The notes below the pieces were generated by a model that saw nothing but the letters and a program-made list of their open reading frames with translations, ran no database searches and was not told the DNA's origin. DNA of 64,000 nucleotides. Source: Candidatus Nomurabacteria bacterium. Lineage in GTDB: Bacteria; Patescibacteriota; Patescibacteriia; HK-STAS-PATE-3. The position numbers and the translations under genes are program-made. Below are positions 616 through 42,778 of the stretch, piece by piece (position 1 is the first letter of the stretch; the number at the start of each line of letters is the position of its first letter). The stretch covers positions 1 to 64,000 of the forward strand of contig CP060223.1 of NCBI GenBank assembly GCA_023898465.1, given 5' to 3'.

Positions 616-1673
616 GGGAAGACAAAAATATTATCAGCATGCATAACTTCTAATCCACGAGTAGTATTTTGGGCAACATGCTTTTGGAGCTCACTACTAC
701 TGATCTCGGTTAGTCCATAGCCAATCGGTCGTTGGGCAGTATCTTGGAGCTCAACACATTCTCGAGCTTGAAATTGTCCAGAGATCTTGTGTATCCCTAC
801 GGCCAGGAGGCTATTACGATTCTGTAGGGCAGTGACAGCCCCAGCATCGAGTTGAATACTTGCCCCTGAATTTTGTGCAGAGAGAATCCAACGTTCACGT
901 GAACTGACCTCCATCTCTTTGTGGGTGGCAATGATGCAGACTGTTCCGTGTTGCGCATTTTTTAATATAACCTCGCTTAAGAGAGATGGTTGATTTCCAT
1001 TCATGACAATAGCGGTAATACCGGCAGTTGCCGCTGTACGAGCCGCCTTAAGTTTTGATTCCATGCCACCACGACCCACTGCAGTTTTTCCTTTGGTATC
1101 AAGATGACGGAGATCTCGCATTTCAATAGTGCGAAGTAATTCCACGCCTTGTCCATTACTTGGATTTTCGGCGTAGACTCCATCAACATTGGTGAGGAGG
1201 AAGAGGTGACTGGCCTGACTGAGCATGGCGACAATGGCGGCAAGCTGATCATTATCCAGGAAGTCCGCTTGCTCGGTAAGCGCAGTAGCATCGTTTTCAT
1301 TTACCACCGGGATGATGCCCTGGGCGCATAGTTCTTTCAAAGTTATTTGCAAGGCATCATAGCGCTGGCGATTAGCAATATCTTCACGTGATAGGAGGAG
1401 CTGGGCAATGTGCACCTCAGCTTGCGCGGCAGCTTTATGGGCTGCTTCCATTAAGAGGAGCTGACCATAGGCAGCTTTTGCTTGTTTACTTTGCAGGGCT
1501 TTGCTTTGTCCACCCATACCAACTGCACCAGAAAGTACTACAATACAAAAATGCCCAGCATCTTGAATTTTTTTCAATTCGGCAAAAAGTTGGGTAAGTC
1601 GCTCGTGCGCAAAAACGCCATCAGGCATGACCGTGCTTGTACCGATTTTTATGACAACGGTGTTTTCTTTCAT
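612..1673 (-). CDS. proB: glutamate 5-kinase with C-terminal PUA domain
   Basis: 353-aa ORF. It has a VVKIGTSTV-like N-terminus, amino-acid kinase fold motifs (LLTNVDGVY, GRGGMESKL) and a PUA-like C-terminus. It is co-oriented with and overlaps proC. Confidence 0.85.
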   Translation of the reverse strand: MKENTVVIKIGTSTVMPDGVFAHERLTQLFAELKKIQDAGHFCIVVLSGAVGMGGQSKALQSKQAKAAYGQLLLMEAAHKAAAQAEVHIAQLLLSREDIANRQRYDALQITLKELCAQGIIPVVNENDATALTEQADFLDNDQLAAIVAMLSQASHLFLLTNVDGVYAENPSNGQGVELLRTIEMRDLRHLDTKGKTAVGRGGMESKLKAARTAATAGITAIVMNGNQPSLLSEVILKNAQHGTVCIIATHKEMEVSSRERWILSAQNSGASIQLDAGAVTALQNRNSLLAVGIHKISGQFQARECVELQDTAQRPIGYGLTEISSSELQKHVAQNTTRGLEVMHADNIFVFP

Positions 1674-8534: not shown

Positions 8535-8547
8535 GGCTATTGACCGT

Positions 8548-8576
8548 CTTAATTTCGTGTGTTATATAAGTAGCTC
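8548..8576 (+). promoter_or_regulatory. sigma70-like promoter (TTGACC-17-TATATA)
   Basis: Near-consensus hexamers at the canonical spacing. It would drive the roughly 250-nt unit that ends at the 8793-8832 terminator. Confidence 0.4.
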
Positions 8577-8792
8577 GAACTTTTGAGCTGCTAGTGTCGT
8601 GTTGTGCGGAAAGTCTATCCAGCGGGTTTACCCTAGCTGCATAGGTGATCCGCTCGCGCATGTGCGGCTCAACTTTGTCGGAGAGCGGATTGGGTTAGAT
8701 CTGGAAAAAGTCTCGGCTTCTAGCCGGCAGTATGAAACTATAGCCCGTAGAGGTGGAGACGAACACTCTGAGCCTCCGCTCTCCTTTTCTCA

Positions 8793-8832
8793 CCGGCCAT
8801 TGGCGTAGTCCATTGGCCGGTTTTCTTTTTTG
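8793..8832 (+). terminator. rho-independent terminator
   Basis: ccggccattggcgtagtccattggccgg hairpin followed by ttttcttttttg. Confidence 0.5.
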
Positions 8833-9151
8833 TATATGCAAAAAGACCGCACATCTCAGGACAAGAAAATGTTTCTATGGTGTGAGATAGGAGGGGGGAC
8901 CCACCTCATCCAGGGGAAACATTCCCATGCTTGTCGTGTCCTGAGATGCGCGGCCGCTTTGTAAAGTCCGCTACTGCTAGCGTGACTTAGGAGGATAGCA
9001 TAGGACTTCTGGCTTGTCAAGACTTACCCTTCACATCCCATATGAAAAGGGAAAAACCCCCAAAAAATCGATTTTTTTCGTTGACGAGACTAGTATTTCC
9101 TGATACAGTTTTGAAGCTACATATCATTGAAAGCAACAAGGAATCAAAGGC

Positions 9152-11439: not shown

Positions 11440-12063
11440 ATGGAAGCAGAGCAACTACCAAATGCACAGCCAAACGAGGAAATCATTTTACTCTTGCGAC
11501 GACATCCTTGGATTATTATTCGTCATTTTCTCTACTTCCTCTTCTTAGCTGGGATTGGCGTAGCAGCTCATGCCTTATTACGTTATGTTGACCCGAGTTG
11601 GTTAAATGAGCAGGATGACATTCGTATGATCCTCGTGACTATTGGCACCAGCGTGTACGGTTTAGCTATTTGGCTTTTCCTTTTTACTGGTTGGCTGGAT
11701 TACTATCTCGACGTCTGGATTCTTACTAATCAGCGAGTTATTAGCATGGAGCTACGAGGACTTTTTGCGCGAGCGACTGCTGAGCAGCATATTGGACGAG
11801 TGCAAGATGTTTCCAGTATTCAGCAGGGGAAGTTAGCTACCTTCCTTAACTTCGGCCATGTGCAGATTCAGACCGCCGGAAGCGAAGTGGTCTTTGTGTT
11901 TGAGGAAGTGCCGAATCCTGAATACGTGGCGCGTCGCGTTTTGCAAGCGCATGATCAGTGGATGCAATCACATCCACACCGGGCAGAGCAAATGACTCAA
12001 GAGGCTCGGGCGGGTATGAGCATTCGAAACGAAGCCTCACCAAAGTCGGGAACCAAGAAGTAG
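11440..12063 (+). CDS. membrane protein with bacterial PH (bPH2/DUF304, YdbS/YdbT-like) domain
   Basis: Two N-terminal TM helices followed by a PH-like region (WILTNQRVI...GHVQIQTAG). Confidence 0.6.
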   Translation: MEAEQLPNAQPNEEIILLLRRHPWIIIRHFLYFLFLAGIGVAAHALLRYVDPSWLNEQDDIRMILVTIGTSVYGLAIWLFLFTGWLDYYLDVWILTNQRVISMELRGLFARATAEQHIGRVQDVSSIQQGKLATFLNFGHVQIQTAGSEVVFVFEEVPNPEYVARRVLQAHDQWMQSHPHRAEQMTQEARAGMSIRNEASPKSGTKK

Positions 12064-12104
12064 TCTTTCATAGACTGAGTATTTGACATACCCGCAGGTA
12101 TTTT

Positions 12105-12365
12105 TTAGTATATCGTCGCGATCACTACTGGTCGCATAAACCGAGGAGGTGCTTCATGCGCCGCTTCGCGCAGGTCGCCGTGATCTAACCTAGCGCCGAA
12201 CGGGGCGTCGCTGCCTTCGTGCAGTGGCGAGGTCTCGGGCCGAGCTTTGTCCCTCCGATATGCTCGCGCCAAATCACGTGTCCGTCGTGTATTAGGACAA
12301 CTCCGTCAGGAGTACGACCAAATAGGACAGCGTACACGACCGTTGTCCTTTTTCATTTTTTGTAA
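12105..12365 (+). ncRNA. orphan transcription unit: promoter, SD plus 10-codon mini-ORF, GC-rich RNA, terminator
   Basis: TTGACA-17-TAGTAT promoter at 12085-12113. GAGGAGG lies 6 nt before ATG (MRRFAQVAVI stop). A GC-rich segment follows, then the hairpin ggacagcgtacacgaccgttgtcc plus tttttcatttttt. Confidence 0.3.
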
Positions 12366-12371
12366 ATTGTA

Positions 12372-14252
12372 TTACCTTACGACCACGCCTGAATTAGTAA
12401 AGATACCCCAGTCTCTTTCAAATTGCGCGCGAGTCCAAGAGACGCGTCCAGCATAGGGATCGTTTAAAATAATCCGCTCTGGATTTTCCGCACTGCCCAC
12501 AAAGCCAATGACGGTACGTGCGTGCTCACCCTTCCAGGCGTAAATAGTTTTTCCTTCCGGCGTCACCCAATCATCGCGATACCCATTTCCGTACACACCC
12601 CAGACCACCACCGCGTTACCGTTTTGTACCTCCTGTGTAAGTTGCTGAATACTCCAGCCGGTGAAGGCTTCACTTGGTCGCCAAGCATTTGCCGCTGCCG
12701 CGATTGGATTCCAATACACACCATAGCCAGTTGTATTTTGCCGTCCATTTATATCACCGACAAAAGCGAGATAGGGATCACCCCAAACGTTACCAGTATG
12801 TGGAGTGCTATCATAGCCGACCCGGGACATAATATCACTTTCACTAACGCTCACCCCTTTATTTGCGAGCGCCATTTTTAATGCGGCAGCTTCACAGGAG
12901 AGCGGTTTATCCTGCAAGTCAGATGCAACGGCCAGTTGGACAGTTTGGGCGGCTGTGGTGAAACTGCTCACGTATGTATCCACAGAATCGGGTCCAAGTC
13001 CCTGGATGCCAGCACGCATGCTTACCGTATATCCCGTGCTGTAGGCGAGTCGTTCGCTGGGTTGATAGGTCATTGCATTTCCGTCCCAGGCAAAACTTCC
13101 ACTAATGTCTGGAGTAATTTGAAAAGCTTGTTCAGCCGAGGCATGCTCTACCTCCTGGTCAAACACTACTTTAATGCCAGCACTAGTACTTATTCCTTGC
13201 GCATTAGTGTCCGGGGTGAGGTAGCTCACTCTGACTGGTCCAATTGTGCCAAAGCTGAAGCTAGTATTTTCTGTTAGGAAACCTCCGTCAGCCGTAGCTG
13301 CGCCTTTGGTAATTTCGAAAGTGTAGGAAGTGTCGTAGGCAAATGCGGTTTCTGGCACAAAGGTAAAGGTGGCATTATCCTCGCTCTCGATGGTACCGTT
13401 AATTTCCGGCGTAATGGAAAAATGCGCACGCACACTTTCGCTATCCATTGCTTGGGTAAAGGTAAAGCTTGGCTTGGTATCGATAGCCACTTGTTCACCA
13501 GTCGGGGAGAGTGAGCTAATGCTAGGCGGCGGAGCGATAGCGAAGTTTCCAGAGTAGACCTCCGTTGCTTCACTTTGTTCCAATACGTGACCAGTAAGTA
13601 AATCCTGCGTCACAAAGACGCGTTCAACGGTGAGGTGATAGGTGCTGCCCTGAGCCCACGAGCTTTCAGGAATGAGTGCGTAGGTATTCAGCTCGGCATT
13701 TTGTTGAATATGGAATTCAGTTGCTGGAGTCAGTCGGAAATAGTATTGCGCATAGTCAGGTGCCGGGCGACTGAGCATGATTTGGACTGGTGCATTAGCT
13801 GAGAGAGCCTCACTCTCATCATTGGGTGATACTTGAGCTACGCCAGGTAAATCTCTTGTACGAAATCCTTGCTGCCAGCTTTGGGTTGATCCGAGAGCAA
13901 GGAGATCGGTAATCCCTTCCAAGGTTATTGTGTATGTCGTATCTGGCTGTAGTACGCGATGGGGAGTGAAGCGCAGTGTTCGGAAGAAGTGATTTCCGAG
14001 CAAGGGATTTTCATAGGTCCACACTCCGTCAATTTCCGGCTCGATAGCAATATGAAGATGTCGACGATCAACCGGTTTATCAAAGTGGATAAGCACTTCA
14101 CTGTCGAGTGCCATTGCCTGTTCATCCTCGTTTGGCTGTACCTCAGTAATCTGCGGATGCCAAAATACAAAATAACCCGTGATAGCTGTGCAGAGCACCA
14201 GACCGATGACCACAAGCACGATAATAAGACTGAAGTGATGAAATTTCCGCAT
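12372..14252 (-). CDS. membrane-anchored protein with Ig-like repeats and C-terminal peptidase C39-like (YvpB-type) domain
   Basis: N-terminal TM segment. The C-terminal region CEAAALKMALANKG...VVVWGVYGNGYRDDW...HARTVIGF resembles the C39-like cysteine peptidase fold. Confidence 0.6.
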   Translation of the reverse strand: MRKFHHFSLIIVLVVIGLVLCTAITGYFVFWHPQITEVQPNEDEQAMALDSEVLIHFDKPVDRRHLHIAIEPEIDGVWTYENPLLGNHFFRTLRFTPHRVLQPDTTYTITLEGITDLLALGSTQSWQQGFRTRDLPGVAQVSPNDESEALSANAPVQIMLSRPAPDYAQYYFRLTPATEFHIQQNAELNTYALIPESSWAQGSTYHLTVERVFVTQDLLTGHVLEQSEATEVYSGNFAIAPPPSISSLSPTGEQVAIDTKPSFTFTQAMDSESVRAHFSITPEINGTIESEDNATFTFVPETAFAYDTSYTFEITKGAATADGGFLTENTSFSFGTIGPVRVSYLTPDTNAQGISTSAGIKVVFDQEVEHASAEQAFQITPDISGSFAWDGNAMTYQPSERLAYSTGYTVSMRAGIQGLGPDSVDTYVSSFTTAAQTVQLAVASDLQDKPLSCEAAALKMALANKGVSVSESDIMSRVGYDSTPHTGNVWGDPYLAFVGDINGRQNTTGYGVYWNPIAAAANAWRPSEAFTGWSIQQLTQEVQNGNAVVVWGVYGNGYRDDWVTPEGKTIYAWKGEHARTVIGFVGSAENPERIILNDPYAGRVSWTRAQFERDWGIFTNSGVVVR

Positions 14253-14333
14253 GGTATTACTATTGTACTGATCCGAGGCGGTCCTTGTCCAACTTATTTG
14301 CCTAGTTCATATTTGTGAGTATACTTTGGCAGT

Positions 14334-15368
14334 ATGCAACTGAGCGATTTTTCCTATCATCTCCCTAAAGATCGCATTGCCCAAAAGCCAATGCGGCCGC
14401 GTGATCATTCGCGTTTATTAGTGCTCAACAGGCAGAAGACGCAGCTTGCGCACCGACATTTTTATAACATCGTCGACTATCTTCAAAAGGGTGATGTGTT
14501 GGTTTTCAATAACTCAAAAGTGTTTCCAGCCCGTCTGCCAGGGAAAAAGATAAGCGGGGGAAATATGGAGGTCTTTTTACTGCGATCCATTTCCCCAGAT
14601 ACTTGGGAATGTTTATTAAGAGGAAAGGGTGCGAAGCCAGGTTTAGAAATGAACATTGTCGGAGTGAAAGCAGCGCAAGATGGCCATCTTCCCTTTCGCG
14701 GTGTGGTAAAGAAAAGCTCTGGAAATGGCATTTGGTGGATACAATTTAATTTTAGGGGAAAGAAATTGCAAAACGCAATCGAGCAATATGGTGAAGCACC
14801 GACGCCGCCATATGTGAAGCGTCTTTCTAACCTCAAGGAGTATCAAACGGTATTTGCGCAAAAGACTGGCTCAGTAGCGGCGCCTACGGCCGGGTTTCAC
14901 TTCACCAAGTCAATCATGCAGAGCTTAGGTCGTAAAGGTGTACAGATTGAGTATGTGACTTTGCATGTTGGCTATGGCACCTTTGCTCCTATTAAAGTAA
15001 ATGATGTGCGTTGGCACCGTATACACGGAGAGTGGATTGAAGTTGATAAGGCAACACATTCCCGATTGGTGCAGGCAAAAAAACAGGGGAGGAGAATAAT
15101 CGCCGTTGGCACAACCAGCGTGCGCACTTTAGAGAGCTTGCCAAAGAAGCCGCAATATACCCACAAGGAAGTGTATACCTATATTTATCCTGGTTATCAC
15201 TTTAAAATGGTTGATGCGATGATCACCAACTTTCATGTGCCTGGCTCGTCGCTTCTCGTACTTGTTTCTGCTTTTGCAGGTCGAGAAAATATATTGAAGG
15301 CATATCAGATCGCTGTGAAGAAAAAATATCGTTTCTATTCGTTTGGGGATGCGATGTTGATTCTCTAG
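14334..15368 (+). CDS. queA: S-adenosylmethionine:tRNA ribosyltransferase-isomerase
   Basis: N-terminus MQLSDFSYHLPKDRIAQKP, full length and C-terminal motifs all match QueA. Confidence 0.9.
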   Translation: MQLSDFSYHLPKDRIAQKPMRPRDHSRLLVLNRQKTQLAHRHFYNIVDYLQKGDVLVFNNSKVFPARLPGKKISGGNMEVFLLRSISPDTWECLLRGKGAKPGLEMNIVGVKAAQDGHLPFRGVVKKSSGNGIWWIQFNFRGKKLQNAIEQYGEAPTPPYVKRLSNLKEYQTVFAQKTGSVAAPTAGFHFTKSIMQSLGRKGVQIEYVTLHVGYGTFAPIKVNDVRWHRIHGEWIEVDKATHSRLVQAKKQGRRIIAVGTTSVRTLESLPKKPQYTHKEVYTYIYPGYHFKMVDAMITNFHVPGSSLLVLVSAFAGRENILKAYQIAVKKKYRFYSFGDAMLIL

Positions 15369-18173: not shown

Positions 18174-18530
18174 TATGTCGTTCTTTCGAAGGATTCAAGA
18201 ATGGCAAATCCATCAAGATACACAGGATCCAGTTAAGCTGGTCTTACGAGCTTTTACAACTTATATAAGTGCTCTCAATAACTTGGCCGATAAAATATAT
18301 CGAGCAAGTGACCCCAGATCAGGCAAGAAGCGTAATACATCTTCCCACTAGGCAATTTTTTTAAGTATGCTATGCTAGGCCTGGTCGTCAAAGGCTCTGT
18401 TTTGCCGACCACTGAACCTTTCACGAATCCAAGGAAATGGTCCCCCCATGTACCGCGGGTACGTGAAAGACCGTTGCTGGACAACACGCCCATTCACTGG
18501 ATGGACGTGCTTACCTTAGGGGTTGGAATG

Positions 18531-18701
18531 AAGAAAGTCCTGTTGCTCTTTGGGGTACTCGCGCTGATGGCACTTCCGTCGGGTCCGGTTCGAGCCGGCG
18601 AGGACGAGGAGGAGGTGCTCATCAGAGCGAAGTTCCCCGTGGACTTCATGGTTCAGGTCGAGTTGGTACGAGGCCTCTCCTTCATTGGGCTGGTAGGCTA
18701 G
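18531..18701 (+). CDS. putative small secreted peptide (57 aa; GC-rich)
   Basis: Internal ATG MKKVLLLFGVLALMALPSGPVRAG is signal-peptide-like. AGGGG lies upstream. A bidirectional hairpin follows at 18730-18760. Confidence 0.3.
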   Translation, partial: KKVLLLFGVLALMALPSGPVRAGEDEEEVLIRAKFPVDFMVQVELVRGLSFIGLVG

Positions 18702-41940: not shown

Positions 41941-42402
41941 ATGGTGATGGCAGTAGGTGCTGCAGTTTCGCTCCTTGAGAGCTTGATTGAGAAAGCGCGA
42001 CAGCAGGGGTGGCTCGTCTATCGTCACGATCTACAATGGGACGATAGCGTCTACGCCCAGATCGTCGATTTCATAGCATCGCTCGGTTCAGCGACCTTGC
42101 CGACGTGTTTGTGCATCCCTATGCATGAGGGTCGGATGCTGCTGGGTATCCCATGTGATGCGGAGCCTGAGATGATTTGTCATCTGCAGTATATGGATGA
42201 TATGGAGCGCGACGTATTGTCCATGCTGCTTGAGGAGCTGGGTTTGCACGAGCACGCGGCCGATCGGACATCCGTAGTGATCCAATTTGCTGTCGATGTG
42301 GAAGTGACCGACGGTCAGACTGTGCGCAAGGAGGTGACACATCGCTGGAGGGTGGCGGACCAGTCTACTTGGGAAGAATGCCTTAGCGACGCTCTTGCAT
42401 AA
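41941..42402 (+). CDS. hypothetical protein (153 aa; GC-rich solitary gene)
   Basis: AAGGAGG RBS at 6 nt. Terminator hairpin gacgc...gcgtc plus T-tract at about 42375-42415. Confidence 0.45.
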   Translation: MVMAVGAAVSLLESLIEKARQQGWLVYRHDLQWDDSVYAQIVDFIASLGSATLPTCLCIPMHEGRMLLGIPCDAEPEMICHLQYMDDMERDVLSMLLEELGLHEHAADRTSVVIQFAVDVEVTDGQTVRKEVTHRWRVADQSTWEECLSDALA

Positions 42403-42778
42403 AGGGCGTCGTTTGCTTTTCTTGACAGTTTTGGTTATCAGATTTAGGCTAACCTTGAGGCATGAAAGTCTTGAAGGCAGGTGTTCGGCTTGTTCCGGAA
42501 TCACTGACCGAATAGGCAAAAGGGTTGCTCCCAGACCAGTAGCTAAGGTTCGATGTACACGTACATTCCTCTACAGAGAGGTGTTGCGCTAAGTGCGCGA
42601 TTACTACGTGAAACCTCACCCTGCATCTGGGGAGGTGCCGAAGCTCTGGGCGTCACCATTTGGTGTGCGCGGTAGTGTCTCACTTCATGGGGGTCAGCAT
42701 TTCGATGTCTGGCCCCCTTTCCTTTATATACACAAAACCCCGCGTGTGCGAGGTTGTTTGTGTATCACCCTTAGGTGA

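Follow-up and report, generated by a model that had tools for sequence, protein, structure and literature searches.

A candidate gene for a highly structured small RNA in a Patescibacteria genome

Introduction

The DapZ and MicL type of sRNA is enterobacterial, is located in a 3′-UTR, and has its own promoter. The unit described here covers about 12118–12358 on the plus strand of the window, which is the whole 64-kb stretch of DNA that was analysed. Like the DapZ and MicL type, it has a promoter at or just after the end of an upstream ORF, shares the only terminator of the upstream operon, and is a discrete sRNA of no more than a few hundred nucleotides. In contrast, its promoter is intergenic and not inside an ORF, its predicted fold is far more structured and leaves almost no single-stranded seed, and there is no sequence relationship. 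We also know of no chaperone in this lineage, which is a further difference from the DapZ and MicL type.

RNAIII and RsaE/RoxS represent the staphylococcal and Bacillus sRNAs that pair C-rich loops with ribosome-binding sites. The unit resembles them in displaying the C-rich sequence CCUCC, complementary to GGAGG, in a hairpin loop. It differs in having one 5-nt loop instead of several UCCC motifs, in belonging to a host where most genes have no SD sequence, and in lacking an Rfam match. SgrS/SgrT, RNAIII/hld, and SR1/SR1P are dual-function sRNAs, and the unit shares with them a structured RNA with a short, SD-preceded ORF. However, this ORF comprises only 10 codons, and its ribosome-binding site is buried in a predicted hairpin. 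A peptide of 10 amino acids is, to our knowledge, shorter than that of any established dual-function sRNA.

The raiA motif RNA is an orphan, complex-folded noncoding RNA of unknown function (PMC11706538). The unit resembles it in standing alone as a gene with a promoter and a terminator of its own, in its length of about 200 nt, in its multi-stem junction, and in having a candidate contact of the tertiary or pseudoknot type. In contrast, the unit fails the raiA model and the other Rfam models at E ≤ 10, and it is found in two close genomes instead of thousands.

Patescibacteria (CPR bacteria) have very small genomes with few regulators and lack a cultured model, and no regulatory RNAs were found described for them in the literature. 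The proteins neighbouring the unit in the window place its host in this group. An orphan bacterial sRNA gene is a well-known kind of object and is no surprise in itself. The reading that is favoured here, with some confidence though not a high one, is that the unit is a gene with transcription of its own, whose product is a noncoding, highly structured sRNA of about 240 nt. It is a clean, selection-supported example of narrow distribution, and its main use would be as a candidate to validate in metatranscriptomes and to seed covariance-model searches.

Genomic location

NIF3, ruvB, a small ORF, and a bPH_2-domain gene lie upstream of the unit on the plus strand, with the bPH_2 stop codon at 12063. 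A Big_5/Peptidase_C39_2 gene (12372–14252) occupies the minus strand downstream and is convergent to the unit, its stop codon being only 13 nt from the unit's U-tract. The next plus-strand gene is queA (14334–15368), beyond the peptidase gene. The initial annotation had reported a GC-rich RNA body, with queA about 2 kb off behind a convergent gene. The gene map of the window agrees with this and contains no co-oriented downstream gene, and the G+C content is 0.59 over 12100–12324 versus roughly 0.40–0.55 in the flanks.

The unit occupies the same place in a second genome, L008, which is 91.4% identical over 5.3 kb, and in L001, a public assembly identical to the window. Neither has a co-oriented gene immediately downstream. 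The unit is carried by the samples SRR12358676 and SRR17818317 from the source environments. In L002 (at 4585), bPH_2 overlaps queA directly, whereas the window, L001, and L008 have the RNA unit and the peptidase gene in between. The L002 genome has its peptidase orthologue on a separate contig (L015), without the RNA. The presence of the RNA and the peptidase gene between bPH_2 and queA in the first three sequences, and their absence there in L002, mark the stretch 12064–14333 as a rearrangement or insertion hotspot.

Promoter and terminator

A sigma-70-type promoter, TTGACA-17-TAGTAT, is found on the plus strand at 12083–12111 (−35 element at 12083–12088, −10 element at 12106–12111, 10/12 match), and begins 20 nt past the bPH_2 stop codon. 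The initial annotation had given the same hexamers and spacing at 12085–12113; the sequence stands, but the real site is 2 nt further to the left. A generic promoter scan shows no enrichment, with 3 sites versus 2.8 expected in 2.5 kb. The pattern TTGAC[ACT]-N16-18-TAnnnT, which the promoter of the unit matches, occurs 17 times in the window versus about 4 that we estimate to be expected; most of the 17 sites lie immediately before genes or tRNAs. Window promoters also share the pattern TTGAC[AC]-N14-TGCTATACT. The −35 and −10 hexamers and the spacer of the unit are identical in L008, a genome of about 91% identity.

Transcription would start at about 12118, some 7 nt past the −10 element, and would end at the hairpin of a predicted intrinsic terminator (12324–12358, plus strand). 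The terminator hairpin, previously placed at about 12325–12365, is present as a 9-bp stem at 12324–12349 with the loop UACACGAC (12333–12340), followed by TTTTTCATTTT and including a U-tract. It has a folding energy of −13.1 kcal/mol alone, with z = −5.0. A terminator scan finds no other plus-strand terminator between 11440 and 12324, so this is the only one for the upstream NIF3-ruvB-bPH_2 genes. As the bPH_2 operon lacks its own terminator, the 3′ end of read-through operon transcripts would also be formed by the RNA. With a promoter where the upstream gene ends and a terminator common to the upstream mRNA, the transcripts predicted from the sequence have the arrangement of a 3′-UTR-type sRNA. 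A consensus scan, which weak promoters could escape, finds no minus-strand promoter inside 12064–12371.

The lack of a terminator between the bPH_2 stop codon (12063) and 12324 also fits a reading in which the unit is mainly a 3′-end element. It would then be a structured UTR or terminator that stabilises the NIF3-ruvB-bPH_2 transcript or insulates it from the peptidase gene, and the promoter would be incidental. The same reading gains from L011 and L012, which carry a different conserved hairpin-plus-terminator module, that of L012 being at the equivalent place downstream of its C39 gene. Even so, it is an unlikely account of the unit. The promoter hexamers and spacer show no change in L008 and match the promoter pattern of the genome, a stable hairpin stands exactly at the predicted 5′ end, and a constrained multi-helix RNA of about 200 nt far exceeds what a terminator needs. 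The preferred reading is still an sRNA with its own promoter.

Conservation

Two sequence variants are compared, that of the window (and L001) and that of L008. The RNA (12118–12358) is 95.0% identical between them, and the upstream spacer with the promoter region (12064–12117) is 96% identical. Identity is lower at the third codon positions of the flanking genes, at 74–88%, and falls to 54% in the 13-nt spacer that separates the U-tract from the peptidase stop codon.

The changes are unevenly placed. A variable arm (12185–12233) contains 6 of the 11 substitutions and the sole indel, and the rest of the RNA, about 190 nt, has 5 changes. With neutral rates of 0.16–0.23, so few changes have a probability of about 1e-9 to 1e-15. 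Outside the variable arm, the unit is about 9 times more conserved than the neighbouring third codon positions. The arm and the 13-nt spacer have diverged normally, which makes selection, and not a recent local transfer, the explanation of the conservation. At the level of these two variants, the comparison shows the unit to be under purifying selection.

Predicted structure

The plus strand folds with an MFE of −99.6 kcal/mol and z = −3.5, and none of 200 shuffled sequences is equally stable; the fold of the minus strand has z = −1.8. The predicted RNA begins with the 5′ hairpin P1, GCGAUCA-CUAC-UGGUCGC (12118–12135), which has −9.5 kcal/mol and z = −5.5 alone and is invariant in L008. It is followed by hairpin P2 (12142–12168, −15.3 kcal/mol), in which GAGG-A-GGUGC pairs with GCGCC-G-CUUC.

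A multi-helix junction domain (12173–12319) comes next and is present in both the MFE structure and the RNAalifold consensus. It is closed by GGUCG/CGACC (12173–77/12315–19) and CGUGAU/AUCACG (12179–84/12273–78). The domain comprises the variable arm with the hairpin GUCGCUGC-CUUCGU-GCAGUGGC, a CCUCC hairpin (12238–12270, −15.9 kcal/mol), a hairpin X formed by UGUCC/GGACA (12279–12299) with the 11-nt loop GUCGUGUAUUA, and the hairpin ACUCC-GUCA-GGAGU (12300–12313), which is invariant in L008. The 5-nt CCUCC loop is at 12252–12256 and is unpaired with a probability above 0.9. The only direct repeats in the unit are a single weak 12-nt pair, and there is no tandem array.

The X loop and the terminator loop are complementary. 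Perfect 8-nt complementarity exists between GUCGUGUA (12284–12291) and UACACGAC, and none of 500 shuffled and refolded sequences reaches it, the maximum among them being 6. The 8-mer has no other occurrence in the 64 kb. In addition, the 3′ strand of the terminator, GUUGUCCU (12342–49), can pair either with AGGACAGC (12324–31) or with AGGACAAC (12294–301). Neither pairing makes an antiterminator, as both leave a hairpin before the U-tract. The 8-nt pairing of the two loops and that of AGGACAAC with GUUGUCCU are ordered a-b-a′-b′ with a′ and b′ 1 nt apart, and their full co-formation is judged impossible. The 3′ domain would thus have either a partial loop-loop contact or alternating conformers.

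The substitutions in L008 can be placed on this fold. In the RNAalifold consensus of the two sequences, 1 of the 11 is in a paired column, where U12184-A12273 becomes U-G, a change that is compatible with the plus strand only. In the MFE structure of the window sequence, the change of U12191:A12230 to A:U within the variable arm is compensatory, and two further changes become G-U pairs; these wobble changes are tolerated on the plus strand only. When the L008 sequence is threaded on this MFE structure, it loses 5.6 kcal/mol versus 16 ± 5 for random sets of 11 substitutions, and 1.9% of such sets do no worse than L008. The sole change in the CCUCC hairpin affects a bulged base (C12267), and the sole change in the loop-loop pair (A12291G) keeps the pair as G-U.

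With only two variants, the structural support consists of 11 substitutions and one compensatory pair, and proper covariation statistics are not possible. Within this limit, the substitutions speak modestly but consistently for a structured RNA on the plus strand. The idea of an orphan unit that makes a structured RNA, put forward in the initial annotation, is supported by the conserved promoter, the terminator, the lack of a co-oriented downstream gene, the purifying selection, and these structure-preserving substitutions.

The mini-ORF and the coding potential

A 10-codon mini-ORF on the plus strand (12157–12189), ATG CGC CGC TTC GCG CAG GTC GCC GTG ATC TAA, would encode MRRFAQVAVI. It is preceded by GAGGAGG at 12144–12150 and 6 nt (TGCTTC), as the initial annotation had pointed out. 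The site, with GGAGG, 6 nt, and ATG, resembles the few genuine SD sites of the window, such as AAGGAGGTGTACTCATG at 41941. SD-like sequences are found for about 5 of the 36 larger ORFs in the window, and about 31 have none. Many window genes carry a −10-like TATACT or TACACT 6–9 nt before the ATG (for example at 14334, 38143, 41319, and 44122), which suggests that most mRNAs are leaderless.

These features could make the unit a dual-function RNA, which is structured and also translated into MRRFAQVAVI, or in which ribosome loading remodels the downstream fold. The SD sequence and its spacing to the start codon match the quality of the real SD sites of the genome, and the region is invariant in L008. 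The mini-ORF also overlaps the 5′ strands of the junction-closing helices (12173–12184), and since it runs through them, a translating ribosome would open the core domain.

In contrast, the SD-like GAGGAGG and the AUG (12157–12159) are enclosed by P2, with the SD bases and the G of the AUG paired, and are thus sequestered in the hairpin of −15.3 kcal/mol. The 33 nt of the mini-ORF are 100% identical in L008, the only other copy, and the comparison is therefore uninformative about the peptide. By our own estimate, 10 codons would stay free of synonymous changes with a probability of about 0.1, given the local neutral rate. The peptide is only 10 amino acids long, about 31 of the 36 window genes do without an SD sequence, and a codon-degenerate search for the mini-ORF in viral contigs is empty. 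A dual function is accordingly regarded as improbable. Translation of the mini-ORF is possible but unsupported; according to the predicted fold, the SD-like sequence and the AUG are probably one strand of a stable hairpin and are not used for translation, and the mini-ORF is probably not what matters in the unit.

Longer coding sequences are rejected on either strand because of an indel and the absence of codon periodicity. Counted by frame, the substitutions fall 5/1/5, and all ORFs of 48–77 amino acids, on either strand, are frameshifted by a 1-nt insertion in L008. A spurious 77-aa ORF is called across the RNA in L008, and a protein-database search with it returned itself alone.

A type I toxin-antitoxin locus and a relic attenuator had both been suggested for the unit in the initial annotation. 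The small ORF with its SD sequence and the strong promoter are in line with a toxin-antitoxin locus or a decaying attenuator or leader, and so are the alternative pairings of the terminator 3′ strand in a unit with no downstream gene. However, the unit has no hydrophobic ORF of at least 20 amino acids. A ribosome-binding site is present on the 10-aa ORF only, the 1-nt indel between the two copies throws the 48–69 aa ORFs and the 77-aa ORF of L008 out of frame, and no promoter of an antisense RNA is found in the unit by the consensus scan. A relic should drift neutrally, yet the unit outside the variable arm is under clear purifying selection, and no co-oriented gene follows it. Neither suggestion is supported, and this pair of explanations is the most improbable one considered. 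A type III antitoxin, which is a ToxI-like repeat RNA, is rejected as there are no tandem repeats and no downstream gene. A noncoding sRNA is still the preferred reading.

Distribution and known RNA families

Among all models of Rfam 15, only seven tRNAs pass the gathering threshold in the whole window. The region 11950–12500 searched at E ≤ 10 has one spurious match, mir-5881, with 13.9 bits versus a gathering score of 87. ARAGORN finds no tRNA or tmRNA in the unit. SRP RNA, RNase P RNA, tmRNA, and 6S RNA are rejected on Rfam, ARAGORN, and the shape of the fold. In the case of 6S RNA, both the MFE and the consensus structures show local 5′ hairpins and a multi-branch junction and no end-to-end rod.

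The unit is single-copy in the window. The position beside bPH_2 was inspected in L002, L003, L006, and L007 (57–76% amino acid identity), and no such RNA is present; bPH_2 of L002 is 57% identical, and L003, L006, and L007 have other sequence there. Searches by blastn, nhmmer, and a covariance model find no adjoining RNA at 52 loci with C39 peptidase homologues and on 3 short contigs. The Patescibacteria orthologues of the peptidase among these loci have 52–75% amino acid identity. With filters off, the covariance model gives marginal matches of about 11 bits in L011 and L012. They are rejected as homologues because generic GC-rich hairpins are aligned, including the own terminator of those RNAs.

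Viral contigs contain no match to seven DNA patterns that cover every conserved block of the RNA. Two metagenome scans give 0 and then 7 matches, all of which are unrelated inverted repeats or coding sequence, and blastn against phages and plasmids gives no match to the unit. The search for further copies that the initial annotation called for has thus yielded the L008 copy, but no second copy in the window and no homologue in more distant relatives. Within the reach of these searches, the unit appears confined to two genomes of about 91% identity and belongs to no described family. The lack of homologues in more distant relatives suggests an RNA that is very young, fast-evolving, or dispensable.

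The neighbourhood of the peptidase gene allows a further reading, in which the RNA regulates the Big_5/C39-peptidase gene in cis as an antisense RNA or through convergent transcription. The hairpin at 12324–12349 would be shared, and read-through would give sense-antisense pairing. Only 13 nt separate the U-tract from the end of the peptidase coding sequence, and since the minus-strand U-tail after the hairpin (AUUUGG) is poor, peptidase transcripts probably enter the RNA gene. The RNA and the peptidase gene adjoin in the window, L001, and L008, and the separate orthologue of the L002 genome (L015) is without the RNA. In contrast, the peptidase homologues at the 52 loci, including the Patescibacteria orthologues, have no adjoining RNA. 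The overlap is possible for the terminator only, whereas the constrained body extends beyond it. Such a cis-acting regulator is very unlikely, and an RNA that acts in trans is preferred.

Possible interactions

The RNA produced from its own promoter at about 12118 and ended by the 12324–12349 hairpin would act as RNA, in trans, through a few exposed conserved loops. The CCUCC loop and the complementary loop pair would be the likeliest interaction surfaces in the predicted fold. The CCUCC pentaloop could pair with ribosome-binding sites of the GGAGG type, but 5 nt are too short for target specificity. The SD-bearing genes of the window give only the generic 5-bp match with the RNA and no extended complementarity. 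The GUCGUGUA/UACACGAC pair may be a loop-loop lock of the 3′ domain or a site for an outside partner.

A bolder proposal is that CPR bacteria have a so far undescribed class of complex-folded noncoding RNAs, with a multi-helix junction and an 8-bp loop-loop contact, and that this RNA is its first member to be recognised. The RNA might also belong to a wider, uncharted set of orphan sRNAs in SD-poor, leaderless-rich genomes, with loops that are either C-rich (GUCCC..UCC) or complementary and G-rich (GGAGGGGGGACC). The proposal is speculative and is given little credence at present. If it is true, the targets of such RNAs might be the SD-led minority of mRNAs, other RNAs of the same set, or the anti-SD of the ribosome. 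The shared GUCCC..UCC motif is not significant, with 3 occurrences versus 2.1 expected. Pairing of the 12118–12358 RNA with the other orphan RNAs of the window is also rejected, as whole-length duplex energies are no better than those of shuffles.

Other orphan RNA units

At least four promoter-to-terminator units without an Rfam match are present in the 64 kb, which suggests that RNA regulation in CPR bacteria is under-annotated.

The orphan RNA at 8834–8992 on the minus strand has a TTGACA promoter element at 9020–9015 and a hairpin of about 50 bp, with z = −8.6 and no Rfam match. It contains a 10-nt asymmetric loop, CGACAAGCAU, and the apical sequence GGGUCCCCCCUCCU, and is 100% identical in L008. 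L002 has a homologue at 691–850 (minus strand) with covarying stems and the invariant sequences GGACACGACAAGCATGGGA, GGGTCCCCCCTCCT, and CTTGTCC. Its invariant 19-mer also occurs in the IMG/VR contigs L072 (4214–4232) and L073 (76–94, minus strand), where the hairpin architecture is the same. This orphan RNA is a candidate for an unnamed motif and appears, from these matches, more widely conserved than the 12118–12358 RNA.

The orphan unit at 8541–8832 on the plus strand is convergent with the one at 8834–8992. It has a TTGACC promoter-like site at 8541 and an RNA of about 260 nt (8572–8832) with two long hairpins and a terminator, CCGGCCAATGG..CCATTGGCCGG followed by a T-run. The fold has z = −6.6, and there is no Rfam match. 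L008 covers only the 3′ end of this unit.

The orphan unit at 42422–42735 on the plus strand has the promoter TTGACA..TAGGCT (42422–42450) right after a plus-strand gene. A structured RNA of about 280 nt (from about 42457, z = −2.9) has a GC-rich terminator and is followed by a convergent gene, a layout that it shares with the 12118–12358 unit. It has no Rfam match above noise.

The module of L012 (3588–3830, minus strand) and L011 (4125–4242, minus strand) consists of a GGAGGGGGGACC hairpin and then a GC-rich terminator, and about 70 nt are identical between both. The L012 module has its own TTGACA-17-TACCAT promoter and is convergent to the C39 peptidase gene, in the same place as the 12118–12358 RNA. 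The L011 module lies at a greater distance from its C39 gene, inside the 3′ end of a candidate ORF of 116 amino acids. The GGAGGGGGGACC sequence is the exact complement of the GGUCCCCCCUCC motif in the window RNA at 8834–8992.

A small plus-strand ORF at 18528–18701 encodes 57 amino acids (MKKVLLLFGVLALMALPSGPVRAGEDEEEV...) and has a signal-peptide-like N-terminus. Within 18360–18701, this ORF is preceded by about 150 nt of untranslated and possibly structured sequence that contains GGTCCCCCC.
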